Assembly: GCA_963816505.1 (NCBI GenBank)
Contig: CAWFKT010000002.1
Location: 448,895 to 512,894, forward strand
Direction of reading: 5' to 3'
Length of the DNA stretch: 64,000 nucleotides
Source: an uncultured Solirubrobacterales bacterium
Lineage (GTDB): Bacteria > Actinomycetota > Thermoleophilia > Solirubrobacterales > 70-9
The notes under the pieces are model-generated. The model was not told the origin of the DNA, did not search any database, and was given only the letters and a program-made list of their open reading frames with translations. Position numbers and translations under genes: made by a program. Below are positions 4,301 through 51,357 of the stretch, in pieces. Numbering within the stretch: the stretch's first letter is position 1; the number at the start of each line of letters is the position of its first letter.

Positions 4301-4415
4301 GGAAGGGCCGGGCACCCCTTCCGGCTCAACTTTTTGGATGTGGGGTGGAGTTGCTGGCGCCGCAAGGTTGGCGCCCAAAAAGTACAAGCCGCCGGAAGGG
4401 GTGCCCGGCCCTTCC
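4301..4415 (+). repeat. Palindromic element A (core-bearing family, forward orientation)
   Basis: Arms GGAAGGGCCGGGCACCCCTTCCGGC (4301-4325) and its exact reverse complement (4391-4415), 25/25 bp. Interior is TCAACTTTTTGGATG...GCCCAAAAAGTACAAGCC. Confidence 0.9.
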
Positions 4416-4446
4416 CCATGATCCGTAGCTGGAATAGGGTGCAGGT

Positions 4447-4930
4447 GTGAGCGGAGATACCGATTGGCCGGAGCAGCCTGCAGAGCGGGTTCGGGAGATC
4501 GTTGAGGGGGTCCTCGACGAGCTCGATCTGGAGGGCGAGGTCGAGATCGCCGAGGACGACGACCGGATCACCGCCTCGATCGACGGCGACGAGGACTACG
4601 GGCTGCTGATCGGCAAGCGGGGGCAGACGATCGACGCCCTGCAGCTGCTCGCCTACCAGGCCGCTTTCCGAGGGGTGCGCGAGCGCAAGCGGGTCGTGGT
4701 CGACGCCGCCGGCTATCGCGAGCGCCGTCGGGAGACGCTTGACGGCGCGGGCCGACCGGGCCGCGGAGCAGGCGCTGGACGACAGCGGCGCGGTCGAGAT
4801 GGACTCGATGAGCGCCCAGGAGCGGCGGGTCGTGCACGAGCACCTCAAGGAGCGGGCCGGGGTCGAGACTTACAGCGAAGGGGACGAGCCGCATCGGTGC
4901 GTGGTCGTTGCTCCTTTGGTTTCGGAGTGA
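4447..4930 (+). CDS. jag: Jag/KhpB-type RNA-binding protein (KH + R3H; one apparent frameshift near 4741)
   Basis: KH part in the frame of 4447 (...DYGLLIGKRGQTIDALQLLAYQ...). R3H part in the frame of ORF 4739..4930 (...MSAQERRVVHEHLKERAGVETYSEGDEPHRCVVVAP). Conserved position after yidC. Confidence 0.82.
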
Positions 4931-5044
4931 GGGAGCGCCCCGGTGGGGGTTCCGCTTAACTTTTTCGAGTCGCGCCCCGGCTGCTGACCATGGCCGGCGG
5001 CGAAAAAGTACAAGACGCTCCACCCCCACCGGGGCGCTCCCTCA
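4928..5044 (+). repeat. Palindromic element B (core-bearing family, forward orientation)
   Basis: Arms TGAGGGAGCGCCCCGGTGGGGGT (4928-4950) and the exact reverse complement (5022-5044), 23/23 bp. Interior is ...CTTAACTTTTTCGAG...CTGCTGAC...CGAAAAAGTACAAGACG... The left arm begins with the jag stop TGA. Confidence 0.9.
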
Positions 5045-5700
5045 GTGAGGCGCAGAGGGCGACGATCTCGGTGGTCTTGGAGCTTTTGGCGACCGAGCGG
5101 GCGTCGGTTAGCTCTGTTACCGATCCGGCGCGGGCTTGGCGGGTGCACGTTGCGGACAGTCTCACCGGGCTCGAGTTCGACAAGCTGCGCACCGCGCGCC
5201 GAATCGCGGATATTGGCTCTGGGGCTGGCTTTCCCGGACTTGTCCTCGCGGTTGCCCTGCCCGAGTCAAAGGTAGACTTGATCGAGTCGGTTGGCCGCAA
5301 GTGCGAGTTCATCGAGCGTGCGATCGAGGCGGCGGGCATCGCCAACGCGAACGTCATCAACGCTCGCTCCGAGGAGCTAGCCGAAGGAGACGGCCGCGAG
5401 GCCTACGCAGCCGTCACCGCCCGCGCGGTGGGCCGCCTCTCAACCCTCGCCGAGCTGGCCTCGCCCCTACTCGAAGAAAACGGCGTCCTCGTCGCCTGGA
5501 AGGGCAAGCGCGACCCCGACGAGGAGGCCCAGCTGGTCAACGCCGCGGAGAAGCTTGCGATGCGGCCGGAACAGCTCCTCCACGTCGGTCCTTACGCCGG
5601 CAGCGAGCACCGTCACCTTCACCTGCTCCGCAAGATAGGCCCCACCCCCACGAAGCTGCCGCGCCGTCCGGGCATGGCCAAGAAGCGCCCTTACGGGTGA
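4990..5700 (+). CDS. rsmG: 16S rRNA (guanine527-N7)-methyltransferase RsmG/GidB
   Basis: SAM-binding region ...RIADIGSGAGFPGLVLAVALPESKVDLIESVGRKCEFIERA... Conserved position between jag and parA. ATG 4990 lies inside repeat B; the alternative start is GTG 5071. Confidence 0.88.
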   Translation: MAGGEKVQDAPPPPGRSLSEAQRATISVVLELLATERASVSSVTDPARAWRVHVADSLTGLEFDKLRTARRIADIGSGAGFPGLVLAVALPESKVDLIESVGRKCEFIERAIEAAGIANANVINARSEELAEGDGREAYAAVTARAVGRLSTLAELASPLLEENGVLVAWKGKRDPDEEAQLVNAAEKLAMRPEQLLHVGPYAGSEHRHLHLLRKIGPTPTKLPRRPGMAKKRPYG

Positions 5701-5824
5701 GGTGCGGGGGCCGGTCCGGTGGAGCCTCGCGAAGCGGCCCCCGGCAAGGTGATCATGAGCCGCGAAGCGGCTCCAATTTGGTGAGCGAAGCGAACATAGG
5801 CTCCACCGGACCGGCCCCCGCACC
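5701..5824. repeat. Palindromic element C (different interior)
   Basis: Arms GGTGCGGGGGCCGGTCCGGTGGAGCC (5701-5726) and the exact reverse complement (5799-5824), 26/26 bp. The interior carries the direct repeat CGCGAAGCGGC at 5728 and 5761 and a central TGATCA. Confidence 0.9.
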
Positions 5825-5848
5825 CCCACAGAAATAGTCTGCCCAGCC

Positions 5849-6607
5849 ATGGGCGTCGTCTACGCGATCTCAAACCAGAAGGGCGGCGTCGGCAAGACGA
5901 CGACCGCGGTCAACGTTGCCGCCTGTCTGGCCGCCTCGGGCGCCCAGACCCTGCTCGTCGACCTCGACCCCCAGTGCAACGCCACCGTCGCCCTCGGCGG
6001 CGAGCGCGACATGCACCCCTCTTCCTACGACTGCCTGACCGGTGACGTCTCGGTCGCCGAGGCGGCCCGGCCGGCCGGGCCCGACAACCTCTGGCTGGTC
6101 CCGGCCAACCGCGATCTGGCCGGCGCCGCGGTCGAGCTGCCGCGGATCGAGGGCTCCGAGACCCGCTTGCGCGAGCGCCTCGGCCCGGTGCGCGAGCGCT
6201 TCGCCTACACCCTGCTCGACTGCCCGCCCTCGCTGGGCCCGGTCAGCGTTAACGCCCTGACCGCCGCCGACCGCGTGATCGTCCCGGTGCAGGCCGAGTA
6301 CCTGGCGCTGGAGGGCCTGGTCCAGTTCCTCGACACGCTGGCGACGATTCGCCGTGAGCTCAACCCGGCGCTGAAGGTGTCGGGCCTGCTGGTCACCATG
6401 CACGACGAGCGCACCCGCTTGGCGCAGGACGTCGAGCGGGAACTACGCCAGCATTTCCCCGAAATGGTCTTCGAGACGGTCATACCGCGCAGCGTCAGGG
6501 TCGCCGAGGCGCCGAGCTATGGCCTGCCCGTGACCGAGCACTCTCCTACCTCGCGCGGCTCGGTCGCCTACCGCAGCCTCGCCAAGGAGCTGGCGGAACG
6601 TGGCTAG
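5849..6607 (+). CDS. parA: Chromosome partitioning ATPase ParA/Soj
   Basis: Deviant Walker A in MGVVYAISNQKGGVGKTTTAVN... 252 aa. Overlaps the parB start by 8 nt. Confidence 0.92.
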   Translation: MGVVYAISNQKGGVGKTTTAVNVAACLAASGAQTLLVDLDPQCNATVALGGERDMHPSSYDCLTGDVSVAEAARPAGPDNLWLVPANRDLAGAAVELPRIEGSETRLRERLGPVRERFAYTLLDCPPSLGPVSVNALTAADRVIVPVQAEYLALEGLVQFLDTLATIRRELNPALKVSGLLVTMHDERTRLAQDVERELRQHFPEMVFETVIPRSVRVAEAPSYGLPVTEHSPTSRGSVAYRSLAKELAERG

Positions 6608-7468
6608 CGCGACCAAGCGTGGGCTCGGCAGCGGCCTGGCGGCGATCCTGCCGGAGGCCGTCGGCGAGGATGCGGGCGAGCTGCGCGAGTTGCCGATCGA
6701 GCTGATCAAGCCGAATCCGAACCAGCCGCGGACCAAGATCGACCCGGAGGCGCTGGCCGGGCTCGCCTCCTCGATCGAGACCAACGGCGTCGTCCAGCCG
6801 CTGCTCGTCCGCCCCCTGCCCGACGGCAGCTACGAGCTGATCGCCGGCGAACGTCGCTGGCGCGCCGCTCAGACGGCCGGACTGGAGAAGGTCCCGGCGG
6901 TCGTCCGCGATCAGGAGCTGGCCGAGCGCCTGCAGGTGGCGCTGATCGAGAACATGGTCCGCGAGGACCTCAACCCGTCGACGAGGCGCGCGCCTGCGCC
7001 GCCCTGGTCGACGAGCTCGGACTGTCCAAGGAGGAGCTGGCTCGCCGCGTCGGCCGCAGCCGTCCCGCCGTCTCCAACCTGATCCGCCTGCTCGACCTCC
7101 CCGACGAGACGCTCGAGCTGCTCGAGTCCGGCAAGCTCAGCGAGGGCCACGGCAAGGCCCTCCTCGGCGCCGAAGGAAACGACGTGCGCCGCCGCCTCGC
7201 CCGCGACGCTGCGCGGGCGGGCTGGTCGGTCCGCGAGACCGAGAACAGGGTTAAGCTGGCCGGCCAGCCAAAAAAGGGGGTGGCCCGGCGACAACCGGCG
7301 CCGGAGGAGGCCGCGGCAATGCGCGAGGTGGCCGACGAGCTCGAGGCCGCCCTCGGCCACGAGGTGACGGTGCGGCCGAGAGGAGGGGAGATCGCCGTCG
7401 AGATCCGCTTCGACGACCTCGACCAAGCGCTCGACCTCGCCCGCGCTGTCAAGCGCGCCGGCCGCTGA
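6600..7468 (+). CDS. parB: Chromosome partitioning protein ParB/Spo0J (one apparent frameshift near 6977)
   Basis: ParB N-terminal boxes ...IELIKPNPNQPRTKIDPEAL...VVQPLLVRP...YELIAGERRWRAA... The HTH and C-terminal half (...LSKEELARRVGRSRPAVSNLIRLLDLP...) continue in another frame to the stop at 7468. Confidence 0.85.
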
Positions 7469-7518
7469 GCGCCGCCGCCTTTCGGCCCGGATCGCCCCGC
7501 TATCCTTCGCCTGGCTGC

Positions 7519-7592
<74 letters not shown>

Positions 7593-7595
7593 CTC

Positions 7596-8090
7596 GTGCA
7601 ACAGATGCAGATCTACGGCGTCAGCTTCGACATGGTCGGCAAGCAGCCGATCGTCTTGCTGAAGACGGTCGACAGCAACAAGTTCCTGCCGATCTGGATC
7701 GGCCATCCCGAGGCGGCGGCGATCCTGATGAAGCTGCAGGGCGCTTCGACGCCGCGGCCGATGACCCACGACCTGCTCTCCGACCTGCTCGAGCAGCTCG
7801 ACGCCAAATGCGAGCGGGTCTCTGTCACCGAGCTGCGCGACAACACCTTCTACGCCTCGATCACGGTCTCGATCAACGGCACCGAGCTGGAGATCGACTC
7901 GCGCCCGTCCGACGCCCTCGCGCTTGCAGTTCGCGTCTCGGCGCCGATCTTCGCGGACGAGGAGGTGATCGAGGAGTCGGCGATCGAGTTCGAGCACGAT
8001 GTCGAGGACACCGAGGAGGTCGTCGACAAATTCAAAGAGTTCCTCGACGAGGTCACCCCCGACGACTTCGCCAAGGGCGAAGACTCCTAG
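7596..8090 (+). CDS. Bifunctional nuclease (BFN/DUF151) domain protein
   Basis: ...FLPIWIGHPEAAAILMKLQGASTPRPMTHDLLSDLL...VSVTELRDNTFYASI...IDSRPSDALALAVR... matches the BFN family as I recall it. Acidic C-tail. The ORF starts 4 nt after tRNA-Ile; ATG 7605 is an alternative start. Confidence 0.7.
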   Translation: MQQMQIYGVSFDMVGKQPIVLLKTVDSNKFLPIWIGHPEAAAILMKLQGASTPRPMTHDLLSDLLEQLDAKCERVSVTELRDNTFYASITVSINGTELEIDSRPSDALALAVRVSAPIFADEEVIEESAIEFEHDVEDTEEVVDKFKEFLDEVTPDDFAKGEDS

Positions 8091-8141
8091 TAGACGGCGC
8101 CCAGCCTGCGTATCTCGGGGTCTTCAGTCGGCTTCCTCGGG

Positions 8142-9215
8142 TCACGCACCAGTGTGCGCTCCCCTCGTCAGCCTCCCTGCATCCCCCGACCTACTTGACT
8201 GGTCGCCGTCTATGGCCAGTTCGAGGATCTTCTCGACCAGACCCTCGAACGACATGCCGGCCGCCTCAGCGGCCTGGGGGAGGAGGCTGGTGTCGGTGAG
8301 GCCCGGGATCGCGTTGACCTCGAGCACCTGCGGCCCGTCGGCGGCGAGGATCAGGTCGACGCGGGAGAAGCCCGCGCAGCCGAGCGTCTCGTAGGCGGCC
8401 AGCGCGGTCGTCGGTGACAGCGCCGGCCTCCGCCTCGCCGAGCTTGGCCGGGCAGACGAACTCGGTGCGGCCGATCTCGTAGCGGGCTTCGAAGTCGTAG
8501 CTGTCGCCGGCTCGCGGGATCGCCTCGACGATCGGCAGCGGCTCGCCGCCGAGCACGCTGACCGCCAGCTCGCGGCCGTCGACGAAGCGCTCGAGCAGCA
8601 CCCGGTCGTCGTAGCTGAAGGCGGAGACCAGCGCCTCGGGCACGTCGAACCAGGTCTCGGCGAACTTGATCCCCAGCGCCGACCCACCGCGGCTCGGCTT
8701 GACCACGAGCGGGAAGCCGAGGCGCTCCTCGAGCCCGGCCGAGCGCGTCGGCGGCGCCGAGCTCGCGGAAGGCGGTCTCGTTGAAGGCGAACCAGTCGGG
8801 TGTCGGGATGCCGGCCGAGCGCAGCTCGTGCTTGGCGAGGACCTTGTCGATGCAGCGCGCGCAGGCAGCGACGCCCGGGCCCGGTGAAGGGGATGCCGAG
8901 GATTTCGAGCAGCTCCTGAGCGGTTCCGTCCTCGCCGCCCGGGCCGTGCATGGCGACGAAGGCGATGTCGGGCCTCTCGGTGCCCAGGCGCTTGACCAGA
9001 TCGCCGTCGGCTTCCAGCGGCAGCACCTCGTGGCCGAGCCGCCCGAGGGCGTCTTCGACCCGGGCGCCGGAGCGCAGCGAGACCCCGCGCTCGAGCGAGC
9101 GACCGCCTTTGAGCACGGCGACCTTCACGCGCCCTCGGCCTTCCGGAACGGCAACACGTCTCCGCCGGCCTTCTTCGACCCGCCACCTCCGGACGCGGAA
9201 CCCAGGCGAATCCAT
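8142..9215 (-). pseudogene. ddl: D-alanine--D-alanine ligase, reading frame broken about three times as assembled
   Basis: VKVAVLKGGRSLERGVSLRSG..., ...FVAMHGPGGEDGTAQELLEILGIPFTGPG, ...FPLVVKPSRGGSALGI..., ...GCAGFSRVDLIL...VLEVNAIPGLT... lie in three frames (shifts near 8872, 8737, 8410). Start is ATG 9215 (AAGGAG 6 nt upstream) or GTG 9128. Confidence 0.85.
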
Positions 9216-10558
9216 ATCTGACTCCTTCGCCTGGGTGGAGCAGCGGAGGTGGCGGGTTTCGAGGTCAGCGCGCCGTAGAGTTCGACCTGCTCGCCGATCG
9301 CCTTGCCGATGCGGCGGATGCCCTCGCGGATCTCGTCCTCGCTGCCGGCTGAGAAGTTGAGCCGCATCGAGTTGCTGCCCGCGCCCGTCGACATAGGCGG
9401 CCTGGCCGGGGACGAAGGCGACGTTCTCGCGCAGCGCCTTCGCCAGCAGGTCGCTGGTGTCGATGTAGGGGGGCAGCGTCGCCCAGATGAAGAGGCCGCC
9501 GTCGGGCTCGGTCCAGGTCGCCTGGGCCGGGAAGTAGCGATCGCAGCGCCTCGATCATCGCGTCGCGCCGGCCGCGGTAGATCCCGATCAGGCTCTCGAC
9601 GTACTCGCGCCAGCGGCCTTCGGCGAAGTACTCGCGGACGAAGTACTGGGTCAGGGTCGAAGTGCAGAGGTCGGCCGCCTGCTTGCCGAGCACGACCTTG
9701 TCCATCACCGGCGGCGGCGCCACCGCCCAGCCGAGGCGGATGCCGGGCGAGAGGATCTTCGAGAAGGTGCCGATGTAGATGACGAAGTCGCCGCCGTCGA
9801 GCTGGTAGAGCGGCGGCAGTGGATCGCCCTCGAAGCGGAGCAGCCCGTAGGGGTTGTCCTCGACGACGAGCAGCTCGCGCGAGCGGGCCAGCTCGACCAG
9901 GCGCCGGCGCCGTTCGAGCGACATCGTCACCCCGGCCGGGTTCTGGAAGGTCGGCACCGAGTAGACGAACTTGGGCCGCCGCCCTTCGCCGTCGAGCCGC
10001 TCGCAGGGACGCCTCGAGCTCGTCGATCCGCATCCCCTCCGAGTCGCACTCGATCTGGATCGTCTCGGCCTGGTAGCTGCAGAAGACCGGGATCGCGCCG
10101 GGATAGGTCGGCGCCTCGCAGATCACCGCGTCGCCGGGGTCGACCAGCGTCTTGCAGAGCAGGTCGATCGCCTGCTGGCCGCCGGTGGTGACGATCACGT
10201 CCTCGGGGTCGGGCAGCATCCCCTCGGCCCCCATCACCTCGACGATGCAGTCGACGGTCTCGCCGAAGCCCTCGGTCGGGCCGTACTGGAGCGCCTCGGC
10301 CGCCGACTCCTGGGCGATCCGCGTCATCTGCGCGGCGAAGGCCTTTGGCGGGAAGGTCGAGGTGTCGGGCAGCCCGCCGGCGAGGGAGATCACGTCCGGC
10401 CGCGCCGTGACCGCCATCAGGTCGCGCATCGCCGAGGAGCGCATCACCCGGGTCCGCTCGGCGAAGAGGCCGGCGTAGCGCTCGAGGTCGCTGCTGCGGG
10501 CGTGGGCGCGGCGGCGATGAGGGGGATCGGGCATCCGAATAGTGTGGCGGATCGGCAC
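9125..10558 (-). pseudogene. Class I/II PLP-dependent aminotransferase (2-aminoadipate/LysN-like), frame broken about three times as assembled
   Basis: ...SLAGGLPDTSTFP..., ...VTTGGQQAIDLLCKTLVDPGD..., ...PTFQNPAGVTMS..., ...IYIGTFSKILSPGIRLGW... (PLP lysine in SK) lie in three frames (shifts near 10000, 9545, 9388). The stop overlaps ddl GTG 9128. Confidence 0.75.
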
Positions 10559-10587
10559 AGAGTCGCCGGGGGAGCTAGGTTTTCGGC

Positions 10588-11022
10588 GTGGGATCTTTCT
10601 CCGGAATCTGCCTCGAGCTCGGCGTCGGCATCGCGATCGGGATGCTCGCCGGCACCACCGGCACGCACGGCTCCGCCCGCGGGCGGATGACGATCCTGGC
10701 CGGAGTGATCGCCCTCGTGATCGGCTTTCTGCTTTCCGGCAGCGCCGAAGTGAGCAGCCTGGCGGGCGCCTTCTTCTGCCTCGTCGGCGCGGTGTTCGCC
10801 TGCCTGGTCGTCAGCGACGTGGTCAGCGGCGCCGGCCGGCGCGAGGGCGGCGGCAGCGGCGCCCTGGGCTTCCTCGTCTCGGTAGCGGCTCTAATCGTCC
10901 TAGCGATCGCAATTCTGATCTCACCAGCCATCCTGCTGATCATCGCCGCCTTGGTCTGGCTCGGTATCTCACGCCGGCGACGCGCCCAGCGTAAACACGC
11001 TGGACTGCGCGTACTGCGCTAA
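10588..11022 (+). CDS. Small integral membrane protein, unassigned
   Basis: 144 aa with about four hydrophobic helices (e.g. ILAGVIALVIGFLL, FFCLVGAVFACLVV, VAALIVLAIAILISPAILLIIAALVWLGI). No family recognised. Confidence 0.55.
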   Translation: MGSFSGICLELGVGIAIGMLAGTTGTHGSARGRMTILAGVIALVIGFLLSGSAEVSSLAGAFFCLVGAVFACLVVSDVVSGAGRREGGGSGALGFLVSVAALIVLAIAILISPAILLIIAALVWLGISRRRRAQRKHAGLRVLR

Positions 11023-11135
11023 GGCCTTCCCCGGTAGGGGTGGAACGTCTTGTACTTTTCCGGCAGCCGCTCGCGGCGTCAGCAGACGCGTCCACACCGG
11101 AAAAGTTAAGTGGAACCCCTACCGGGGAAGGCCTT
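11021..11135 (-). repeat. Palindromic element D (core-bearing family, reverse orientation)
   Basis: Arms AAGGCCTTCCCCGGTAGGGGT (11021-11041) and the exact reverse complement (11115-11135), 21/21 bp. Interior is CTTGTACTTTTCCGG...GTCAGCAG...CCGGAAAAGTTAAG, the reverse complement of the B-type core. Confidence 0.9.
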
Positions 11136-11167
11136 CGGCCACCACCGCGGTTGAGGATGATGCGCTG

Positions 11168-12685
11168 GTGCCCGCCAAGAAGCTGATCCTCACCTACGTC
11201 GACTCGTTGCGCACCGACATGCTCGTGCGCGCCGTCGACGAGGGGCGGGCGCCCACGTTCGGCGCCCTGATCGAGCGCGGCTCGCTGATCCCGGACTGCG
11301 TCTCCAGCTTCCCCTCCGTGACCCCGGTTGCCTGCGCCGAGATGGTCAGCGGCAGCGGTGCGGACGGGCACTGGATCAGCGGCATGAACTGGTACCACCG
11401 GCTCGAGCGACGCTACGTCGAGTACGGCTCCTCGCTGGAGGCGAGCCGCACCGTCGGCGTCTTTCGCACCCTCTACGACCTCGTCTACAACATGAACCTG
11501 GCCCACCTCAACCCCTCGATCGAGACCCTCTTCGAGCAGCTCGACGACGCCGGCCTGCGCACCGCCTGCACGCCCTTCCTGATCTACCGCGGCCGCCACC
11601 GCCACCAGGTATCGCTCGACGGGCTGCTGCGCCGCGCGGTCGACGCCACCCGGCTCAAGTTCCGCCACCACACCTGGGGGCCCGGCGAGCTCTTCTACGG
11701 CGACCTCTACGCCAGCCGCGAGGTTCCCTGCAAGTCGACCTCGATCCCGGGCAGCCGCGACGGCTACTCGGCCTGCTGCTCGGCGGAGCTGATCAAGGAC
11801 GACGGCTTCGACTTCCTGCTCTTCTCGCTTCCCGACAACGACAACTACTCGCACCGCTTCGGGCCGCAGGCCAGCGTCGAGTCGATCGCCAAGGCCGACC
11901 ACTGCTTCGGCAAAGTCGTCGATGCGGCGGGCGATCTCGACACCTTCCTCGACCGCTACGCGGTGATCCTGCTCGCCGACCACGCCCAGACGCCGGTGCA
12001 CCGCGGCCTGCCGCTGGCCGAGCTGCTCGGCCGTGAGTGGTCGGTGCTGCGCCCCTCGGAGTCCGAGCCGCAGAAAGCGCAGCTGGCGGTCAGCCCGACC
12101 GGCCGCGCCGCCCACGTCTACCTGCTGGCGGGGGAGGGGGAGCGGGCCGACCCTGAGGCGGTGGGGCGAGCGCTGGGCGAGATCGAAGGCGTCGACCTGG
12201 TCTGCTGGATGGAGACGGTCGACGGCGCGCCGCTGAGGCGAGAAGAGCCGGGCACGCCGGGAAGCGACGCGGTCGCGGTGATCGAACGAGACGGCCGGCG
12301 ACTCAGCTTCGGTCCCGGTACTGCCGCGGCCGATCTCCGCGGTGGGCACTGGCAGCTCGACGGGGACCTCGCCGTCTTGGAGGCAACGATCGAGGGCGGT
12401 CGGCTGCGCAGCGAGGCCTATCCTGACCCGCTCGCCCGAGTCTGGTCGGCGCTGAGCGGCCCGCACGCCGGCGACTTCATCGTCTCCCTGGCGGAGGGCT
12501 ACGAGGCAGTCGACTGGGGAGGCGTCTCCCACGCCGGCGGCGGCAGCCACGGCGCCCTCCAAGCCGGCGACTCGCTCGGCCCGCTCCTCTTCGTCGGCTG
12601 CGGCCCAGACGACCCAGGCCGGCGAGAGCAATGGGCTCTGCGCGATGTGACCCCCGTGGTGCTTGACCACTTCGGATTGACCTGA
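11168..12685 (+). CDS. Alkaline-phosphatase-superfamily type I phosphodiesterase/nucleotide pyrophosphatase-like protein
   Basis: ...TYVDSLRTDML...SSFPSVTPVACAEMVSG..., ...LFSLPDNDNYSHRFGP..., ...ILLADHAQ... resemble metal and nucleophile motifs of the AlkP superfamily. 505 aa. Confidence 0.65.
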   Translation: MPAKKLILTYVDSLRTDMLVRAVDEGRAPTFGALIERGSLIPDCVSSFPSVTPVACAEMVSGSGADGHWISGMNWYHRLERRYVEYGSSLEASRTVGVFRTLYDLVYNMNLAHLNPSIETLFEQLDDAGLRTACTPFLIYRGRHRHQVSLDGLLRRAVDATRLKFRHHTWGPGELFYGDLYASREVPCKSTSIPGSRDGYSACCSAELIKDDGFDFLLFSLPDNDNYSHRFGPQASVESIAKADHCFGKVVDAAGDLDTFLDRYAVILLADHAQTPVHRGLPLAELLGREWSVLRPSESEPQKAQLAVSPTGRAAHVYLLAGEGERADPEAVGRALGEIEGVDLVCWMETVDGAPLRREEPGTPGSDAVAVIERDGRRLSFGPGTAAADLRGGHWQLDGDLAVLEATIEGGRLRSEAYPDPLARVWSALSGPHAGDFIVSLAEGYEAVDWGGVSHAGGGSHGALQAGDSLGPLLFVGCGPDDPGRREQWALRDVTPVVLDHFGLT

Positions 12686-14358
12686 TGCGGAAGAGCGCCC
12701 TGTGCCTCCTGCTCTTTGTGGCGCTCCTCTTGCCCGCAACCGCATCGGCCGAGGTCGGCGCATCGCAAGCGACCCGCATCGCCGCGCATGACCCGAATGC
12801 AATCAAGGAGCGCGAAGAGAACACGGTGCTCACCCACAGCGCCAGCAAGGTCGAAGGCAGCTGGGATGTCGCCTACTTCGCCGACGAAAAAGAGGTCGCG
12901 CTGGTCATCGTCGACCCGAAGACCGGCCGCGTGCGCGAGTCGTGGACCGGCTATCAGGTCGCCTGGAAAATGGCCCGCGGCTACTCCGGCGCCTTCGGCC
13001 ACAAGCTCAACGCCCCCTACGTCTTCCTGCCGCTCTGCGCGATCTTCCTGCTCGGGCTGGTCGACTGGCGGCGGTTGAGGCGCATCGCCAACCTCGACCT
13101 CGTCTTCCTGCTCGGCTTCGGCGTCTCCAACTTCTTCTTCAACCGGGCCGAAATCGGCGTCTCGGTCCCGCTCCAGTACATCCCGCTCGTCTACCTCTTC
13201 GGCCGGGCGCTGTGGATCGGCCTGCGTGGCCGGGGGGAGGGGATCAAGCCCGCCTGGCCGGCAGCCTGGCTGCTCGTCGCCGCGCTCTTCCTGATCGGCT
13301 TCAGGGTCGGGCTCAACATGGCCGACTCGGGCGCGATCGACGTCGGCTACGCCGGCGTGGTCGGCGCCGATCGGATCTCCCACGGCGAACCGATCTACGG
13401 CAACTTCCCCAAAGACGTCTCCCAGGGAGACACCTACGGCCCGGTCAACTACTTCGCCTACGTCCCCTTCGAGCGGATCTGGCCCTGGTCGGGAACCTGG
13501 AACGACCTCCCCGCAGCCCACGGCGCGGCGGTCTTCTTCGACCTAGCCACCTTCGCCCTCCTGATCCTCCTGGGCCGCCGAATCCGCCCCGGCCCCGAGG
13601 GCAACAAACTCGCAGCGACCCTGGCCTTCGGCTGGGCGGCATACCCCTACACGGCCTACGCCCTCCTATCGAACTCCAACGACACCCTGGTGGCGATGCT
13701 GCTGGTGGCAACACTGTTGGCACTGGCGCGCCCTGCTGCTCGAGGTGTCATGGCGGCACTTGCGACGCTGGCAAAGTTCGCACCGGCGGTGTTGGTCCCG
13801 ATGCTCGCGACGTATCGGCCCGCGGGTCCTGTCGCCGCAGGGGACCCACCACCCCTTCCGGTCGCTAAAGCGTCCTCAGGGGAGGTCCCCCCTGCGACGC
13901 CACCCGCGGGAGTGAAGTTTGCGATTGCTTTCGCACTCACAGCGCTTGCCCTGCTGCTGTGGCCCGCGATAGATCCCGGCCTGCACACGTTCTACGACCG
14001 GACGATTGCCTATCAAGCCGGCCGAAATTCACCATTCAGCATCTGGGGGCAGGTAGCTTGGCTGGAACCCGCACGCATCGCGATCCTCGCAGCAGTCGCC
14101 GCCCTCGCCCTGCTCTTTGCTTTCCGCCCCAAGGAGAAGAAGCTCACGCAAGTAGCAGCGCTGGGTGCGTCTCTCCTAATCGGCCTGCAGCTAACGATGC
14201 ACCACTGGTTCTACCTCTACATAGTCTGGTTCTACCCACTACTCCTCATAGCCCTGGTGTCCCTGGAAAGGAAGTCGGATACCCCTCCGAACGGCTTGTA
14301 CTTTTTCGGCGATACAAACTCGGCCAGCCGATCACTCTCCACCGAAAAAGTTGAGTGA
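12685..14358 (+). CDS. Polytopic GT-C-like membrane glycosyltransferase (DUF2029/GT87-like) with N-terminal extracytoplasmic domain
   Basis: Signal peptide, about 90 aa soluble domain, then at least 10 hydrophobic helices. Loop ...DVGYAGVVGADRISHGEPIYG...DTYGPVNYFAYVP... The ATG overlaps the upstream stop (TGATG). The last ~29 codons lie inside repeat E. Confidence 0.55.
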   Translation: MRKSALCLLLFVALLLPATASAEVGASQATRIAAHDPNAIKEREENTVLTHSASKVEGSWDVAYFADEKEVALVIVDPKTGRVRESWTGYQVAWKMARGYSGAFGHKLNAPYVFLPLCAIFLLGLVDWRRLRRIANLDLVFLLGFGVSNFFFNRAEIGVSVPLQYIPLVYLFGRALWIGLRGRGEGIKPAWPAAWLLVAALFLIGFRVGLNMADSGAIDVGYAGVVGADRISHGEPIYGNFPKDVSQGDTYGPVNYFAYVPFERIWPWSGTWNDLPAAHGAAVFFDLATFALLILLGRRIRPGPEGNKLAATLAFGWAAYPYTAYALLSNSNDTLVAMLLVATLLALARPAARGVMAALATLAKFAPAVLVPMLATYRPAGPVAAGDPPPLPVAKASSGEVPPATPPAGVKFAIAFALTALALLLWPAIDPGLHTFYDRTIAYQAGRNSPFSIWGQVAWLEPARIAILAAVAALALLFAFRPKEKKLTQVAALGASLLIGLQLTMHHWFYLYIVWFYPLLLIALVSLERKSDTPPNGLYFFGDTNSASRSLSTEKVE

Positions 14359-14377
14359 GGAGGGGTATCCGACTTCC
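14270..14377 (-). repeat. Palindromic element E (core-bearing family, reverse orientation)
   Basis: Arms GGAAGTCGGATACCCCTCC (14270-14288) and the exact reverse complement (14359-14377), 19/19 bp. Interior is CTTGTACTTTTTCGG...CCGAAAAAGTTGAGTG. Confidence 0.9.
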
Positions 14378-14392
14378 CACCCGGTACCGGGT

Positions 14393-15175
14393 CTAAGAGG
14401 TAGGAGCGGGCACCATCACAGGTGTAATCGAGTCAGCAAGCCCTCGGTCGTTAACGTCAACCGCCGCCCCCATAACCCAGACATCCTCCTCGGCAGTCTC
14501 GAACTTAACCGGCATCTGAGTGATCATCGACTCAAGGATCAGCTCCGGTTTCACCCCCAGCACACTCGTCCGCGACCCGGTCATGCCCACGTCGGAGATG
14601 AACGCGGTCCCCTGCGGCAGCACCCGCGCGTCCGCAGTCGGCACGTGTGTGTGCGTCCCCAGCACGGCCGCGGCCCGCCCGTCGAGGTGCCAGCCCATCG
14701 CCACCTTCTCGCTGGTCACCTCGGCGTGGAAGTCGACGATCGAGAAGTCGCACTCGATCTTCTCGAGGATGCTATCGACCTCGTGGAAGGGCGAGCGGGC
14801 GACCTTGAGCCCGATCGCGCCGCTGAGGTTGATCACGCCGACGCGGCGCCCGCCCGCTTCGACCACCGTGTAGCCGCGGCCGGGGTTGGCGTAGGGGTAG
14901 TTCGCCGGTCGCACCACCCGGTCGCTGCGGTTGAGGAAGCCGTAGACCTCGCGGTGGCGGTAGACGTGGTTGCCGGTCGTGATCACGTCGGTGCCGGCGT
15001 CGAAAAGGGCTTTCGCCGTCTTCTCGGTGATCCCCATCCCGCCGGCCGAGTTCTCGCCGTTGACCACGACCAGGTCCGGCGCGAAGCGCTCGCGCAGCGC
15101 CGGCATCGCGTCTCTCAGCCCGCGCCGGCCCGGTCCGCCCACCACATCGCCGATGAATAGCACCACCATGGTCAC
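14393..15175 (-). CDS. YmdB-like (TIGR00282) metallophosphoesterase
   Basis: ...VLFIGDVVGGPGRR...VVVNGENSAGGMGIT...TGNHVY...DFHAEVTSEK...GTHTHVPTAD... are calcineurin-like phosphoesterase motifs in the YmdB arrangement. 260 aa. Confidence 0.85.
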   Translation of the reverse strand: MTMVVLFIGDVVGGPGRRGLRDAMPALRERFAPDLVVVNGENSAGGMGITEKTAKALFDAGTDVITTGNHVYRHREVYGFLNRSDRVVRPANYPYANPGRGYTVVEAGGRRVGVINLSGAIGLKVARSPFHEVDSILEKIECDFSIVDFHAEVTSEKVAMGWHLDGRAAAVLGTHTHVPTADARVLPQGTAFISDVGMTGSRTSVLGVKPELILESMITQMPVKFETAEEDVWVMGAAVDVNDRGLADSITPVMVPAPTS

Positions 15176-15193
15176 CTGACCCTATCTGCGATA

Positions 15194-15901
15194 TTGCGCC
15201 GAGGTGGAGATTTGAGAGAGCGCAGCGATGTCCTGGAGCGCGCGATGGGCTACCCGTACCCGGCGCCGTCGCGTCCCTTCGTGCAGCAGGGCCACGCCAC
15301 GATCGATCCCGCCGAGGTCGAGGTCGATTGGAGCGGCCGGGTGCCGGTTCTGGCCTACGGCTCCAATGCCGCCCCCCGGGCGCTGGCCCACAAGCTCGCG
15401 CTCAGCGACGACCCCGTCCTCGTCGTCCCGGCCTGGCTGCACGATTTCGACGTCGTCTACTCGGCCCACATCTCTCCCTACGGCGCGGTGCCGGCGACGC
15501 TGCAGCGCAGCCCCGGAACGGCCGCCCGCGTGCACCTCGCCCAGATGACCGAGGAGCAGGTCGTGCTCGTCTCGGCGACCGAGCCGAACTACGAGGCGGT
15601 GACGCTCGAGGACGTCGAGTGCCGGCCCGAGGGCGGCGAGGTCGTGACCCGGCTCTCCGCCTACTTCAGCCGCCACGGCTGTCTGCTCGTCGACGGCTCC
15701 GAGGTCGCCCTCTCGGCGGTGCAGGCAAGCGGCAGGACCTTCGCCTCGATGAGCGAGCCCGAGGTTCTGGAGTACGTCAGAGGGGCCTGCTGCCCGGACG
15801 ACGACATCGAGGAGTTCGTCCTCGCCAACGTCACCGATCCCGCCCTGGCGGACTCGCGAACCGCGACGCTGGCGCGGCGGCCGGGGCCGATCTCCTCCTA
15901 G
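15194..15901 (+). CDS. Gamma-glutamylcyclotransferase/AIG2-like fold protein (tentative)
   Basis: ...VPVLAYGSNAAPRAL... matches the YGSN(L) N-terminal motif of the GGCT family. The rest is unassigned. The likely start is ATG 15245 (MGYPYP...). Confidence 0.4.
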   Translation: MRRGGDLRERSDVLERAMGYPYPAPSRPFVQQGHATIDPAEVEVDWSGRVPVLAYGSNAAPRALAHKLALSDDPVLVVPAWLHDFDVVYSAHISPYGAVPATLQRSPGTAARVHLAQMTEEQVVLVSATEPNYEAVTLEDVECRPEGGEVVTRLSAYFSRHGCLLVDGSEVALSAVQASGRTFASMSEPEVLEYVRGACCPDDDIEEFVLANVTDPALADSRTATLARRPGPISS

Positions 15902-17250
15902 ACCGCGGCGAAGCGGCGCAGGGCGAAACGGGCGAGAAGGCCGTAGGCGACGATCAGGATCGCCAGGTGCGCGAGCGCCGCCGCGATGCTCGGCCCGGCC
16001 GGGTCCAGGGCGCCGGTCATCGCCTGCAGCGCAGGCTTGAAGGGGAAGAGGGCGGTGATCAGATCGATCGCCCCGTTGAGCGCCGGCCCGACAGTGCCGG
16101 AGGGGATCAGCGAGAGGAAGGCGATCGGCAGCGTCACCATGAAGGCCAGCAAGGAGACGGCGCGGACCTCGCGCGCGGCCGCGCCAAGCGCGGCGCCGGC
16201 CGTCCCCAGGGCGGCGCCCCCGGCGACGATCGCCGCCAGCCAGAGGCCGATGCGGCCCCAGTGCAGGGGCACGAAGAAGGAAAGGCCTGCCAGCATCAGC
16301 AGCGTCACGACCAGGCCGACCGCGACCCCTAGCGCGACCTTCTCGGTGAGCAGGGCCGAGCGCGAGACGAGCCCGCGGGTGAGCCGGGGAAAGGCGTTCT
16401 CCTCTCGCTCCAGGGCAAGCGAGCCGGCGACGAGCAGGACGGTGACGAAGGCGAGGGTGAAGGTCGCGGCGACGGCGATCGCGAAGACTTCGAGCGGTGG
16501 GGTGGAGGCGTTGAGCACCTGCTTCTTGACCGCGATCGGTTGGGTGAGGCGGGTGAGCAGCGGCGCCGCAGTGCCGAGGTTGGCCCGGGTGAGGGTGGTG
16601 AACCTGAGCACCTGGTCGAGCGAATCGCGCAGCGGTCCGGGCGGCAGTGCCGGCCGCAGAGCCGAGAGGATGCGAGCGGTGTTGTGCAGGCCGAGGATCT
16701 GGATCGTCTGGCCGAGCACGCTGAAGTTGCCGCCGTTGAGGATCAGCCCCATGAACTTGCCGCCTTCGGCGGCGATCCGGCGGGCGATCACCAGGTTGGC
16801 CTGGGTCAGCAGCGAGTCGATCCGGTCGTTGACCAGGCGCGCCTTGACCGGGTCCTCCTCGTTGACGATCACTTCGACCTGGGGAGTGCTGGGGCTGGGG
16901 GTGGAGAGCGAGTTGATCCGTTCGACCAGGTCGCCGGGCAGGATCAGCGCCGCCAGCACGTCACCCGAGCTGACCTCTTCGACCGCTTCGGCGCGACTCT
17001 TCACGTGCACGCACTCGACCCGTTCGCAGATGCGATTGCTGACCCCGATTTTCGGCAGCTGGGTGGTGCCGACGCTGACCCTGGAATCGCTCGGCACGTC
17101 GTTGAGGAAGGCGACCCGTGGCTTCTCGGGCGAGCGCGAGATCGCGAAGCCGACGAGGACCGCGATCAGCACCGGGTAGGCGACCAGCAGGAACGCCTGC
17201 AGGGGGGAGCGGCGGAGGATCTGCAGGTCCTTGAGCAGCAGCCAGCGCAT
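15898..17250 (-). CDS. ABC-2-type transporter permease with large extracytoplasmic loop
   Basis: 450 aa: N-terminal TM, about 200-aa loop, then 5 C-terminal TM helices. Start overlaps the upstream ATPase stop by 1 nt at 17250. Confidence 0.75.
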   Translation of the reverse strand: MRWLLLKDLQILRRSPLQAFLLVAYPVLIAVLVGFAISRSPEKPRVAFLNDVPSDSRVSVGTTQLPKIGVSNRICERVECVHVKSRAEAVEEVSSGDVLAALILPGDLVERINSLSTPSPSTPQVEVIVNEEDPVKARLVNDRIDSLLTQANLVIARRIAAEGGKFMGLILNGGNFSVLGQTIQILGLHNTARILSALRPALPPGPLRDSLDQVLRFTTLTRANLGTAAPLLTRLTQPIAVKKQVLNASTPPLEVFAIAVAATFTLAFVTVLLVAGSLALEREENAFPRLTRGLVSRSALLTEKVALGVAVGLVVTLLMLAGLSFFVPLHWGRIGLWLAAIVAGGAALGTAGAALGAAAREVRAVSLLAFMVTLPIAFLSLIPSGTVGPALNGAIDLITALFPFKPALQAMTGALDPAGPSIAAALAHLAILIVAYGLLARFALRRFAAV

Positions 17251-18011
17251 CAGTGGCCGCGGTGGTGGAGGTAGGCGACGAAGGCTGTCTCGAAGTCCTG
17301 GTCGGCAGCCTCGGGCGCCTCGCGGCGCACGGCCTCGCGGAGGCCCTCGGCGGAGCCGTCGAAGAGCGCCTCGCCGTCGGCGAGCACCAGCAGTCGGCCC
17401 CCGTAGCGCTCCGCCTCCTGGATGTCATGGGTGGAGAAGATCACCGTCGTCCCCCGCCCGGAGGCAAGCGCCGAGACGAAATCCCAAAGCCGAGCCCGCT
17501 GCCGCGGGTCCAACCCCACGCTGGGCTCGTCGAGCAGCAGCACCGAAGGCCGCGCCAGCAGCCCGATCGCAATATTGATCCGCTGCTGGTTGCCACCGGA
17601 GAGCCGAGCCACGATCTCTCCCCGCCGCTCGCCAAGGCCGGTCAACTCCAACATCTCCTCCACGGAAACGCGCGGATCGGAGTGCTTCTCAAGTCGGGCA
17701 AAGAGCAACAGGTTCTCCTCGACGGTCAATCGCCGGTAAAGCGCAGCCTGCTGAGGAACCCAGCCAACCTCACCCTGAGGGACATGAACCTCACCTTCGT
17801 CGGGCTTGGAGATGCCAGCGAGAATCGAGAGCAACGTGGTCTTGCCCGCTCCATTGGGCCCGATCACGGCGACAAGCTCTCCGGCCGAAGCCTCGAAGTC
17901 CACCCCTCGAAGCGCCGGCCGCGCTCCGTACTTCTTCACAAGCTTCCGTGCCTCGAGCACGGCCACGCTAGTCCCGCTCCCCGCATCCATGCGCCGAACG
18001 CTATCCGCCAA
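17250..18011 (-). CDS. ABC transporter ATP-binding protein
   Basis: Walker A GPNGAGKTT, signature LSGGNQQR, Walker B VLLLDEPSVGLD, H-loop STHD. 253 aa. Confidence 0.9.
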   Translation of the reverse strand: MADSVRRMDAGSGTSVAVLEARKLVKKYGARPALRGVDFEASAGELVAVIGPNGAGKTTLLSILAGISKPDEGEVHVPQGEVGWVPQQAALYRRLTVEENLLLFARLEKHSDPRVSVEEMLELTGLGERRGEIVARLSGGNQQRINIAIGLLARPSVLLLDEPSVGLDPRQRARLWDFVSALASGRGTTVIFSTHDIQEAERYGGRLLVLADGEALFDGSAEGLREAVRREAPEAADQDFETAFVAYLHHRGH

Positions 18012-18047
18012 GGGACACCGGCATTGTTAGCTGTGGCTTGAGCGAAG

Positions 18048-18122: not shown

Positions 18123-18141
18123 TCCCCTAAACTCGGCCCAA

Positions 18142-44042: not shown

Positions 44043-46866
<2,824 letters not shown>

Positions 46867-48573: not shown

Positions 48574-48603
48574 CGAACAGCTTCATCTCAGGACGAAAAG
48601 GGG

Positions 48604-48634: not shown

Positions 48635-48639
48635 TGTCC

Positions 48640-49356: not shown

Positions 49357-49381
49357 CGCCCGCAGCCTAACGCGGGGTCGC

Positions 49382-49834: not shown

Positions 49835-50118
49835 CAGCGCTCTCCGACGTAGGGCAGCAGAGCGATCTCCCGCGCGCGCTTCACCGCCACCGAGAGCTGG
49901 CGCTGGTGCTTGCGGGAGAGGCCGGTGACGCGCCTGCCACGCGTCTTCCCCTTGTCGGAGAGGAAGCGTCGCAGCAGGTTGAGGTCCTTGTAGTCGACCG
50001 CCTCGGAGTTGATCCGCGTGTATTTACGCGGACGGGCGCGGTCGTCGCGACGACCGCGCGCGGGGTGCTGCTCGTGAATTCCTGAGTCGTTCGATCTCTG
50101 GCCATACGGGCTGGCCAT
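49834..50118 (-). CDS. rpsR: 30S ribosomal protein S18
   Basis: ...[50 protein letters not shown]... Confidence 0.92.
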
Positions 50119-50127
50119 CCTACAGAC

Positions 50128-50598
50128 CTAGAAGGGAATGTCGTCGTCCCCGCCGCCGCCAGCCGCCGCGCCGGCGAAGTCCGAGGATCGGCGGGCACGT
50201 CGCTGCTGGGGCTGAAGCCGCCGCCCTGGCCGCCCTCGCCACCGCCGCCCGAGCCGTCGCGCGAGCCGAGGAACTGGACCGAGTTGGCGATGATCTCGAC
50301 GTTCTGGCGTTTGACGCGCCGTCTTTTGCTCCCACTCGCGCCAGTCGAGCCGGCCCTCGACCGCGACCGGGCGGCCCTTGGAGAGGTAGTTGGCGCAGTT
50401 CTCGCCCTGTGCACCCCAGACGATGACGTCGAAGTAGTTGGGCTTGTCGACCCATTCGCCCGTCTGACCGTTCTTGCGGCGGCTGTTGACCGCCACGCGC
50501 AGCTTGCAGACCGAGGTTCCGCCCGGCGTGCTGCGCAGCTCGGGATCGCGGGTCAGGTTTCCGGTCACGACCACCACGTTCACGTTCGACGCTGCCAC
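50128..50598 (-). pseudogene. ssb: Single-stranded DNA-binding protein, two apparent frameshifts (near 50318 and 50190)
   Basis: GTG 50598 with GGAGGAG upstream. ...NVNVVVVTGNLTRDPELRSTPGGTSVCKLRVAVNSRR...NYFDVIVWGAQGENCANYLSKGRPVAVEGRLDWREWE | ...KRQNVEIIANSVQFLGSRDGSGGGGEGG... | ...GGGGDDDIPF* (canonical acidic tip). Confidence 0.85.
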
Positions 50599-50746
50599 AG
50601 CTCTCAACTCCTCCGAATCGTTGTCTGGATTCCAGTCTAAGAGTGCAGCCGGCGAAACTCTCCCCCCCGGCCCCGCAATCTCCGCACAAATACGGGCCGA
50701 TTGGCCGATTCCCGACGATACGGGCCGGTTATCGGCCCGTCGGCGG

Positions 50747-51223
50747 CTACTCGGCCGGAGCGGCGGGCGGCGCCTCGACGACGCTCTCCGCGGGTGCCTC
50801 GGCCGCCGCGGGAGCGGCATCCTCGTCCTCGGCGGCTACCGCGACCGGGGGTGGGCCCTGGGGCCCGCGATCGCGCGAGGCGCCGTGCGCGGGGGCGGCA
50901 ACGGCGGGCGGCACCATCACCGGCGCCTCGGAGTCGACTTTGAAGATGCGGAAGCGCAGCACGCCGTCGGCGATCTTGAGGTTGTGGTTGAGCTCGTCGA
51001 GCAGCTCCGACCGGCGCCTCGAAACGAAACCAGCGGTAGTCGGCCTCGTTGCGCGAGCTCGATCTCGTAGGCCATCTTGCGCAGGCCCCATTTGTTCTCG
51101 TGCTTCAGCGTCCCGTTGGCCTCGATCCGGCCGCGCACGTCCTGTGCGAGCACGTCGCGCACCGGCCTCGTCGGGGCCGGGGTCCAGCATCAGGACCAAC
51201 TCGTATTCGCGTGGGGCTGCCAA
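50747..51223 (-). pseudogene. rpsF: 30S ribosomal protein S6, about three apparent frameshifts (near 51170, 51048, 51012)
   Basis: TTG 51223. AAPREYELVLMLDPGPDEA | RDVLAQDVRGRIEANGTLKHENKWGLRKMAYEIELAQ | EADYRWFRFEAP | SELLDELNHNLKIADGVLRFRIFKVD..., plus an Ala/Pro/Glu-rich tail. First gene of rpsF-ssb-rpsR-rplI. Confidence 0.82.
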
Positions 51224-51257
51224 AGACGGCGAGGGACTATAGCGGCAGGGGGCGGCG

Positions 51258-51357
51258 GTCGGGTACCCCTTCCCGCTCAACTTTTTGGATGGGTGCGTAT
51301 GGCGACGCCTCAAGGTGGACGCCCAAAAAGTACAAGCCGCGGGAAGGGGTACCCGAC
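51258..51357 (+). repeat. Palindromic element G (core-bearing family, forward orientation)
   Basis: Arms GTCGGGTACCCCTTCCCGC (51258-51276) and the exact reverse complement (51339-51357), 19/19 bp. The interior TCAACTTTTTGGATG...GCCCAAAAAGTACAAGCC is nearly identical to element A. Confidence 0.9.

Follow-up and report, generated by a model that had tools for sequence, protein, structure and literature searches.

The 64,000-nt window analysed here, a stretch of contig CAWFKT010000002.1 from an uncultured Solirubrobacterales bacterium, contains five copies of a dispersed composite hairpin of 105–120 nt, in which an invariant asymmetric core is enclosed by long arms that are complementary within each copy. 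As far as sampled, the element (called family 1 where it must be told apart from other hairpins) is specific to a clade of uncultured Solirubrobacterales with small genomes (2.5–3 Mb). Intergenic palindromic repeats have not been described before from this clade, and the element constitutes an undescribed variant of the kind represented by the repetitive extragenic palindromic (REP) and ERIC sequences, not a classical miniature inverted-repeat transposable element (MITE). The reading that we favour, tentatively, is that of a hairpin retained by the host at transcript ends and in intergenic gaps, the core of which would be recognised by a factor and the arms of which would be kept by template switching together with selection.

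An earlier note on this DNA had described five copies of a dispersed repeat, intergenic or at gene ends and in both orientations, with two conserved boxes around about 33–40 variable nt. This description holds: all five copies were found in the sequence and by pattern matching, at the positions and in the orientations given, and the variable stretch between the boxes measures 33–37 nt. Below, F designates the orientation in which the element was read in that note, and R the opposite strand. The pattern AACTTTTYSG-N(25-50)-CSRAAAAGTACAAG gave 5 matches in the window, against a mean of 0.00 in 100 dinucleotide-preserving shuffles, and the 11-mer AAAAGTACAAG, with up to one mismatch allowed, picked out the same five sites and no others. 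A covariance model derived from 120 copies and run with filters off, a check which the note had proposed, returned exactly the five copies (79–115 bits), the next matches (31 bits at most) being other hairpins. Each copy folds as a single hairpin of −60 to −82 kcal/mol (z of −6.6 to −8.8 versus shuffles), with arms of 19–25 nt that are 95–100% complementary. The two subfamilies that had been distinguished, A with G (to which E is to be added) and B with D, are genuine, and turn up again in other genomes as type 2 and type 1, respectively.

Copy A (type 2, plus strand, 4301–4415) has arms of 25 nt (4301–4325 and 4391–4415) that are 100% complementary and are joined by TC and CC to a core at 4328–4388; its minimum free energy is −79.3 kcal/mol (z −7.0) and its covariance model score 89.6 bits. 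It is flanked by yidC (3546–4298), whose stop codon is 2 nt from the arm, and khpB/jag (Pfam 60KD_IMP and KH_KhpA-B), with F as the sense strand. Copy B (type 1, plus strand, 4928–5044; −81.8 kcal/mol, z −8.8, 110.3 bits) has 23-nt arms, also 100% complementary (4928–4950 and 5022–5044), linked by TCCGCTT and ACGCTCC to a core at 4958–5014. It separates khpB/jag from rsmG (Pfam GidB), F again being the sense strand, and its first three bases coincide with a TGA (4928–4930) that is probably the khpB stop codon. Copy D (type 1, minus strand, 11021–11135; −71.9 kcal/mol, z −7.9, 114.7 bits), with arms at 11021–11041 and 11115–11135 and a core at 11049–11107, lies between two co-directional genes for which R is the sense strand: a 144-aa open reading frame (ORF), whose TAA stop (11020–11022) overlaps the arm, and a gene of the phosphodiesterase family (11168–12685). 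Copy E (type 2, minus strand, 14270–14377; −62 kcal/mol, z −6.9, 96 bits), with arms at 14270–14288 and 14359–14377 and a core at 14295–14352, sits between convergent genes, one with a weak GT87-family match under the Pfam cut-off (plus strand) and ymdB (minus strand). Copy G (type 2, plus strand, 51258–51357; −60 kcal/mol, z −6.6, 79.1 bits) has its core at 51279–51336 and arms at 51258–51276 and 51339–51357, whose complementarity extends outwards to 51255 and 51360. It occupies a divergent gap upstream of rpsF, with the rpsF-ssb-rpsR-rplI genes of the minus strand on one side and, on the other, a gene that starts at 51861 and looks, by eye, like a trehalose-6-phosphate synthase.

The outer stem is mostly 19–22 bp long (19–25 in the window); among 129 copies, 83 have a perfect stem and 39 a stem with a single mismatch. 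The outermost 8–10 nt of the arms are unrelated between copies. A small symmetric loop of mismatched bases is found in most copies: type 1 has TCC/TCC (or TTC/TTC), and many copies of type 2 have TC/TC, although some of type 2, window copies A and G included, have no such loop; read on R, these loops are GGA/GGA and GA/GA, i.e. tandem purine mismatches. There follow a covarying 2-bp clamp, RC/GY (GC/GC in 60 copies, AC/GT in 53), an asymmetric internal loop (5′ strand TYA, 3′ strand ACAAGMC), and a nine-pair inner stem, ACTTTTTSG with CSAAAAAGT, which is invariant save for covarying CG/GC and TA/CG pairs. The apical part, of about 35 nt, carries the subfamily motifs (GCTGRCGCC in 52 copies, CCGTCCGA in 20), and the core as a whole is 54–62 nt long. 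On R the sequence reads CTTGTAC-TTTTTSG, where GTAC is invariant in 120 of 120 copies. Each element holds two inverted A5/T5 tracts, in a genome of 68–70% GC.

The most informative feature, a strong compensatory pattern, had been missed by the earlier reader, who also did not spell out that the arms are not conserved among copies and are complementary only within each. In an alignment of 120 copies, standard pairs make up 97.2% of the cells of the 31 proposed pairs, versus 71.2% when partners are shuffled, and double changes occupy 891 cells versus 240. The covariation score was 0.643 versus 0.155, a value reached by none of 500 shuffles, and sliding the partners by 1–3 columns brought pairing down to 39–56%. 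All 20 pairs of the outer stem show double changes.

A scan of a collection of species-representative genomes found the exact pattern in at least 119 blocks of 8 kb (designated L followed by a number) from about 80 metagenome-assembled genomes (MAGs), nearly all of them Solirubrobacterales/Thermoleophilia, which clearly disposes of the possibility that no further copies exist. Several of the element-bearing genomes are complete chromosomes of 2.5–3.0 Mb. The window and these blocks together hold 132 copies in 0.98 Mb, and no autonomous relative, orphan half-site or long version of the element was seen in them. One block, L079 (JBLMYD010000083.1), is from a MAG labelled Chloroflexota; its left arm and core are near-identical to those of a copy in L065, from a Solirubrobacterales MAG, and the contig is therefore probably mis-binned. 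The viral contigs searched contained no copy. As in the earlier note, the repeat could not be assigned to a named family: Rfam (release 15), searched with the whole window at gathering scores, returned two tRNAs only, and an E-value search of 4250–5100 gave chance matches to hairpins of the miRNA-precursor type, all below threshold. Full-text literature searches yielded no description of such an element for this clade. Covariance model scores are all-or-none: in 767 kb, about 107 copies scored at least 64.7 bits, and a single partial copy (55.7 bits) fell between the intact copies and the opposite-strand echoes (about 50 bits). The degenerate copies seen were one that is truncated (L088:3822) and one that has lost its core (L047). 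In the former the right half of the element is gone (around 3780–3900); in the latter (around 1280–1343) the arms and outer loop are kept, and the inner stem and apical part are gone (GAAGCGTCTTG^AAGCGGAA). Two inverted family 1 copies about 0.4 kb apart occur in L011 (4543–5091), L021 (7205–7730) and L076 (4121–4692), an arrangement kept in three species upstream of a gene resembling, by eye, chlorite dismutase/HemQ.

BLAST comparison of 600-nt flanks showed many copies to be bordered by the same genes from one species to another; copies A, B and E, for instance, have counterparts in L067, L046 and L111. Among 119 comparisons of orthologous sites, the element was present in the same orientation in 79, inverted in 4 and absent in 18. 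In the remaining 18 the site had a hairpin of a different family, an unrelated hairpin or a larger insert, a copy that was truncated or had lost its core, or an intact copy that ran past the alignment boundary. The element is thus in both species in 83 of the 119 comparisons, with its core intact and flanks about 80% identical, so that many copies are old and vertically inherited. In 28 orthologous pairs with the same loop register, 535 arm pairs could be compared: 383 were unchanged, 135 had changed on both sides and were still Watson-Crick, 13 had changed on one side and 4 were other cases, which makes 17 uncompensated changes. In the orthologue of copy E (L111:5018–5135), the arms differ at about 10 positions, every one of them compensated. 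Overall, 29% of arm pairs diverged, as compared with 15%, 12% and 35% of codon positions 1, 2 and 3 in the flanking genes; the arms drift at a roughly neutral rate. The 22 specified core positions were unchanged in 70% of comparisons, where drift like that of third positions would give a chance of about 0.65^22, roughly 1e-4.

Insertions and deletions of 1–2 bases are mirrored at the same depth on both arms, fully in 4 of 33 orthologous pairs and partly in 2 more. In one lineage the core itself is inverted (L110 relative to L036 and L086). Compensatory changes are what selection for pairing would produce; in addition, near-neutral arm drift, mirrored indels and core inversion argue for templated copying from arm to arm, and template switching is likely the mechanical basis of arm perfection. 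It is established that DNA polymerase template switching between inverted repeats homogenises and extends the arms and inverts the spacers (PMC8604942, PMC7202029). Such switching would also explain the generic perfect stems of the other hairpin families in these genomes.

At empty orthologous sites (as in the pairs L023/L010, L029/L107, L033/L112 and L052/L055), the whole hairpin is missing, arms included, and the genes lie a few bases apart or have overlapping stop codons. With the arms missing too, the element is more than a core that landed in an older terminator hairpin, and insertion into pre-existing terminator hairpins is ruled out as a general origin by orthologous sites that are empty of any hairpin. 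At the site in L103 that is orthologous to copy D, the element is also absent; the two flanks align with 6 nt of net gap between them, the base-level alignment of the left flank being poor. As in the earlier note, no target-site duplication (TSD) was seen: direct repeats are lacking at the cleanly aligned filled versus empty junctions (L023/L010, L029/L107, L033/L112, L052/L055 and L107/L029). The element bears no hallmarks of cut-and-paste or TSD-forming transposition. Cores can also be exchanged in place. L069 has a family 1 core where L099 and L118 have homologous arms (GCGGGYGGCCCTCCC) around GAGCGGC-N4-GCCGCTC-TTGAGT, and window positions 59874–59965, a site orthologous to that of a family 1 copy in L097, hold yet another core.

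Of the genes that read into the element, 40% have their stop codon no more than 3 nt from the end of the arm, and often overlapping it (TGA-GGG..., TAG-GGG...). The element occupies 24% of convergent, 12% of tandem and 9% of divergent junctions (p = 7e-5), values that are inflated in absolute terms by the choice of loci, the ratios being unaffected. At tandem junctions the sense strand is F in 36 cases and R in 17 (p = 0.013). In the three pairs that extend the inner stem, G.T/T.G combinations number 149 on the F strand versus 18 for A.C, and the inner module alone is more stable as F RNA in 110 of 132 copies. This wobble on F, together with the sense-strand bias, fits an RNA of F sense. Hairpins followed by a T-run are not in excess in this DNA (8 found in window positions 1–20000 versus 7.8 expected in shuffled sequence), and a consensus scan of the same 20 kb found no sigma-70 promoter. 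Such a lack of consensus terminators and promoters is typical of high-GC Actinomycetota, and bears on how transcripts end here.

These features can be assembled into a mechanism. Transcription of the flanking gene or genes would yield an RNA with a very stable hairpin just past the stop codon, which would act as a barrier to 3′ exonucleases and/or terminate or insulate transcription, especially where genes converge. A docking or processing site for a putative trans-acting factor, for example an RNase III-type or other RNA-binding protein, would be provided by the invariant A/U stem together with the asymmetric loop. In this the element would be analogous to the REP and ERIC elements of enterobacteria. 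The arms would be kept perfect by arm-to-arm template switching on the DNA (quasipalindrome correction) plus selection for pairing; the same switching can invert the core, and selection would remove the copies that lose the hairpin. Copies would be gained and lost rarely and as whole hairpins, and cores may be exchanged between families inside a retained stem. What leads us to this host-retained transcript-end hairpin is the location at stop codons, the enrichment at convergent junctions, the long retention in streamlined genomes, the purifying constraint on the core, the wobble pairs on the sense strand and the lack of any excess of classical terminators. There is a precedent in E. coli, where one REP is both a terminator and an mRNA stabiliser and where REPs between convergent genes correlate with expression (bioRxiv 10.64898/2026.03.23.713779).

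Several observations weigh against it. Copies are found in either orientation, and some lie in divergent gaps (copy G; 13 junctions); a role independent of orientation is awkward for an asymmetric core. No T-run follows the right arm in either orientation, so that classical intrinsic termination is not encoded; the sole matches to a terminator consensus at the copies are folds formed locally by the left arm ahead of the internal T5 in A and B. None of the RNA runs searched contains the window region (the DNA runs that match it are soil metagenomes, with at most 13% of words, and their contigs gave only fragments and core-box matches from other copies), and no partner protein was identified. 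The invariance of the core could come from concerted evolution, i.e. gene conversion among copies, and not from selection at each locus. The rare mismatches of the outer stem, moreover, are biased the other way: on F they are A.C/C.A 32 times and G.T/T.G 7 times. The bias remains when mismatches are counted once per cluster of orthologous flanks (24 versus 5, p = 5e-4), a conservative count, the only use made of these clusters, which are over-merged because the flanks contain other repeats. It also persists where only F is sense (10 versus 2). Base composition cannot yield such a bias, and the usual deamination asymmetries of transcription and replication predict its opposite. It suggests a process at the DNA level tied to the polarity of the element, or an R-strand single-stranded form, and not a sense RNA; preferential repair of G.T in a DNA hairpin of the F strand, or a requirement for the single-stranded R strand, are possible sources. 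The strand signals of the inner and outer stems point in opposite ways and are hard to reconcile fully.

That bias is among the arguments for the main, if rather unlikely, alternative, in which the element is a non-autonomous mobile element of the REPIN/RAYT or IS200/IS605 (PATE) type, moved as a folded single strand. The asymmetric loop and the GTAC beside the inner palindrome would form the substrate of a single-copy HUH tyrosine transposase encoded elsewhere, persistence would be due to vertical inheritance and any benefit to the host would be secondary. A single-stranded DNA intermediate of the R strand would give mismatches that are G.T on R, as they are (32 versus 7), regardless of the direction of transcription. 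The element is dispersed, multi-copy and oriented either way; it is present or absent only as a whole hairpin (the 18 empty orthologous sites); the absence of a TSD is as expected of single-stranded DNA transposition, and GTAC followed by a palindrome on R recalls the GTAG plus palindrome of REPs. REPINs, too, are hairpins in which compensatory changes are common and which persist for very long times (PMC3116915; bioRxiv 10.1101/2021.07.10.451892). However, neither a transposase nor a transposase-like gene between two inverted copies was found in the window (64 kb) and a further 0.92 Mb, in keeping with the earlier remark that none was visible, and the genes between paired copies look by eye, from their translations without a domain scan, to be of the housekeeping type. 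The conserved part is the centre, not the ends as in REPINs. Many relics would be expected of a selfish family on which the host exerts no selection, yet in about 70% of orthologous comparisons both species have the element, and hardly any copy is decayed; nor is there any copy in the viral contigs. Retention by the host and mobility are in any case not exclusive, as the history of REPs indicates.

A DNA-level site, i.e. a cruciform or hairpin bound by gyrase or a nucleoid protein, as in BIMEs, and handling supercoiling between convergent genes, appears improbable. It would account for the enrichment at convergent junctions, for the mismatch bias that is independent of the sense strand and for the two inverted A5/T5 tracts, which would serve as bend or melting points in such GC-rich DNA; moreover, TCAACTTTTTG of type 2 fits the IHF core consensus TCAANNNNTTR, with which type 1 does not agree. 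But a protein that binds duplex DNA would conserve the sequence of the arms and not their complementarity, the G.U-type pairs confined to one strand in the inner-stem extension are typical of a single-stranded nucleic acid, and no evidence for such a protein was found. Least probable is a free-standing, multi-copy structured RNA gene (small RNA, ribozyme or riboswitch). The strong covariation, the invariant core and the conserved apical loop motifs are what such a gene would display, but there is no Rfam match, no conserved flanking promoter or terminator and no core of the hammerhead, twister or similar type recognisable by eye, and the element stands in both orientations relative to genes, usually a few nt from stop codons. 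Other interpretations of the core were rejected. A small ORF (SD-like GGTGGAG, i.e. resembling a Shine-Dalgarno sequence, then TTG/GTG) does not fit core lengths of 54–62 nt that fall in all residues modulo 3, and two example copies enter box 2, by eye, in different frames. An internal promoter (TTGTAC as −35, or TAACTT/TACTTT as −10) has no consistent partner hexamer and the consensus scan was negative; a classical terminator is dismissed by the absent U-tract. A hammerhead-like reading of CUGACGC...GAAA does not fit the core, K-turn, loop E and UAA/GAN readings of the asymmetric loop fail to fit both subfamilies, and a GGUGGAG-CUCCACC pseudoknot, possible in type 1 only, was not adopted.

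The label of REP/MITE-type element given in the earlier note can be kept in part. That the repeat is dispersed, in both orientations and intergenic or at gene ends is correct; the MITE component is not supported, since the termini are not conserved, direct repeats are lacking, no autonomous relative turned up in the 0.98 Mb and many copies are old and vertically inherited. MITEs have conserved terminal inverted repeats and a TSD, whereas here the arms are complementary within a copy only and the cleanly aligned junctions show no duplication. The REP component holds as a resemblance to the REP/ERIC kind. Like REP, BIME and REPIN sequences, the element is extragenic, multi-copy, hairpin-forming, found in both orientations, at gene 3′ ends and in convergent gaps, and the likeness extends to common compensatory changes and very long persistence in lineages (PMC3116915). 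It differs from a classical REP in being 3–5 times longer (105–120 nt versus 20–40 nt), with arms that differ in every copy in place of a conserved sequence, in having GTAC in place of the GTAG/GTGG found 5′ of the REP palindrome, and in an inverted pattern of conservation: REPINs have conserved ends and a free spacer, the element an invariant centre and free outer 8–10 bp of the arms. No RAYT was seen in the window or in the at least 119 blocks of 8 kb (the genes between paired copies being judged by eye), and the hosts of REPs are Proteobacteria whereas those of the element are Thermoleophilia.

ERIC/IRU (about 127 bp), Correia and similar MITE-like repeats fold into a single long, imperfect hairpin, are located, in either orientation, in intergenic regions that are transcribed, and are present or absent as whole units at orthologous sites. 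The element resembles them in size, in its single long hairpin, in its intergenic location in either orientation and in whole-unit presence or absence, but ERIC and Correia have a full-length consensus that includes terminal inverted repeats, most with TA-like duplications, whereas the termini of the element differ and are not accompanied by a duplication. The RNase III hairpins of phage T7 type, the cleavage of which leaves a protective 3′ hairpin on the upstream mRNA, also have an asymmetric internal loop between a lower and an upper stem; the analogy is functional only, as they are not repeats and have no invariant A/U stem. With the attC sites of integrons, the element shares a structure conserved over sequence, a variable central part and asymmetric unpaired bases, and its GCTYAAC fits the R″ consensus RYYYAAC. 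The GTTRRRY box of R′ is missing, however, the partner side reading GTACAAGMC; the conserved boxes of attC are terminal and those of the element internal; and attC sites lie in cassette arrays by intI, whereas the element is dispersed near yidC, khpB, rsmG, ymdB and other housekeeping genes in both orientations. Intrinsic terminators, lastly, are G+C-rich hairpins followed by a U-tract, and the element has no T-run in either orientation. To conclude, the element resembles REP, BIME and ERIC sequences and departs from REP/REPIN (size, GTAG, conserved ends), from MITEs, from attC and from intrinsic terminators.

Several further families of long hairpins, with different cores, are present in the same window. 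One such hairpin, at 5701–5824 between the rsmG stop (5700) and the parA start (5849), has perfect arms of 27 nt and a 70-nt core in which GCGAAGCG occurs three times; with copies A and B, it follows that every gap of the yidC-khpB-rsmG-parA cluster holds a long hairpin. A second family (or pair of families) of long perfect hairpins has a core made of a small GC hairpin followed by CTTGAGT (window 18048–18122) or TTTGAGTATCCGCC (window 59874–59965). It also occurs at L099:2083–2160, L118:6088–6169, L041:3201–3275, L111:404–481, L037:4803–4905, L059:5164–5258 and L103:7078–7170, and replaces the family 1 core inside homologous arms at some sites. A third family (GCTGGGATTTTTGCCGG ... GCAAAAATCAGGACGCCGC) is found at L043:949–1077 and 5376–5497, L002:3877–3996 and L016:3476–3598. 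It has in common with family 1 the T5/A5 inner stem and an RRGAC-GC loop (3′ side), and may therefore be a sister of family 1, addressed by the same or a related factor; hairpins with GCTGGGATTTTTGCC...GCAAAAATCAGGACGCCGC likewise share this stem and loop with family 1. Larger composite hairpins (L046:5611–5748 and 7122–7261, L028:6986–7136, L016:5724–5855 and L071:4116–4262) have cores of 88–105 nt that contain two or three GC hairpins, and a motif of the GATTGCATTTC type is common to them; one of the two in L046 occupies the site of window copy A.

It is conceivable, if doubtful, that the element is but one member of a modular hairpin system, with several families, interchangeable cores and generic perfect stems, each core addressing a dedicated protein. 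At least two families share the T5/A5 inner stem and the RRGAC-GC loop, and the putative proteins would act on a folded single strand, RNA or DNA. Templated copying from arm to arm would let the stems drift neutrally while pairing is kept. If true, this would amount to a new class of structured 3′ untranslated region code, or to TSD-less hairpin mobile elements, outside the REP/RAYT paradigm.

Window positions 84–4298 belong to an origin-type neighbourhood, where a 436-aa ORF on the minus strand (84–1394), likely dnaN, and dnaA (1327–2922, also minus) are followed by a gap and then by yidC-khpB-rsmG-parA on the plus strand. The exact YidC protein of the window has no database record. The khpB/jag frame breaks near 4743, where a related metagenome contig is one base shorter; the corrected frame ends at the TGA of 4928–4930. 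The rpsF region (50900–51240) also reads as two frames, and both breaks are probably assembly indels of the MAG. The elements lead ORF callers to run genes into the hairpins or to place gene starts within them: the rsmG call begins with an ATG of copy B, a copy that also contains the TAA at which the khpB/jag ORF ends when left uncorrected. Genes for tRNAs are located at 7519–7592 (plus) and 28359–28432 (minus).

Outside Proteobacteria and a few other cultured groups, REP-like repeats have not been studied well. The present family is clearly delimited and is found in an abundant, uncultured clade of soil actinobacteria with streamlined genomes, and its signature is unusually clean, combining an invariant core, near-neutral paired arms, mirrored indels, core inversion and core exchange. 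The covariance model is ready for databases of RNA or repeat families. The family lends itself, as a system found in nature, to telling apart what selection and template switching each contribute to keeping hairpins intact, and provides a lead on how transcripts are ended or insulated in high-GC bacteria that do without classical terminators.

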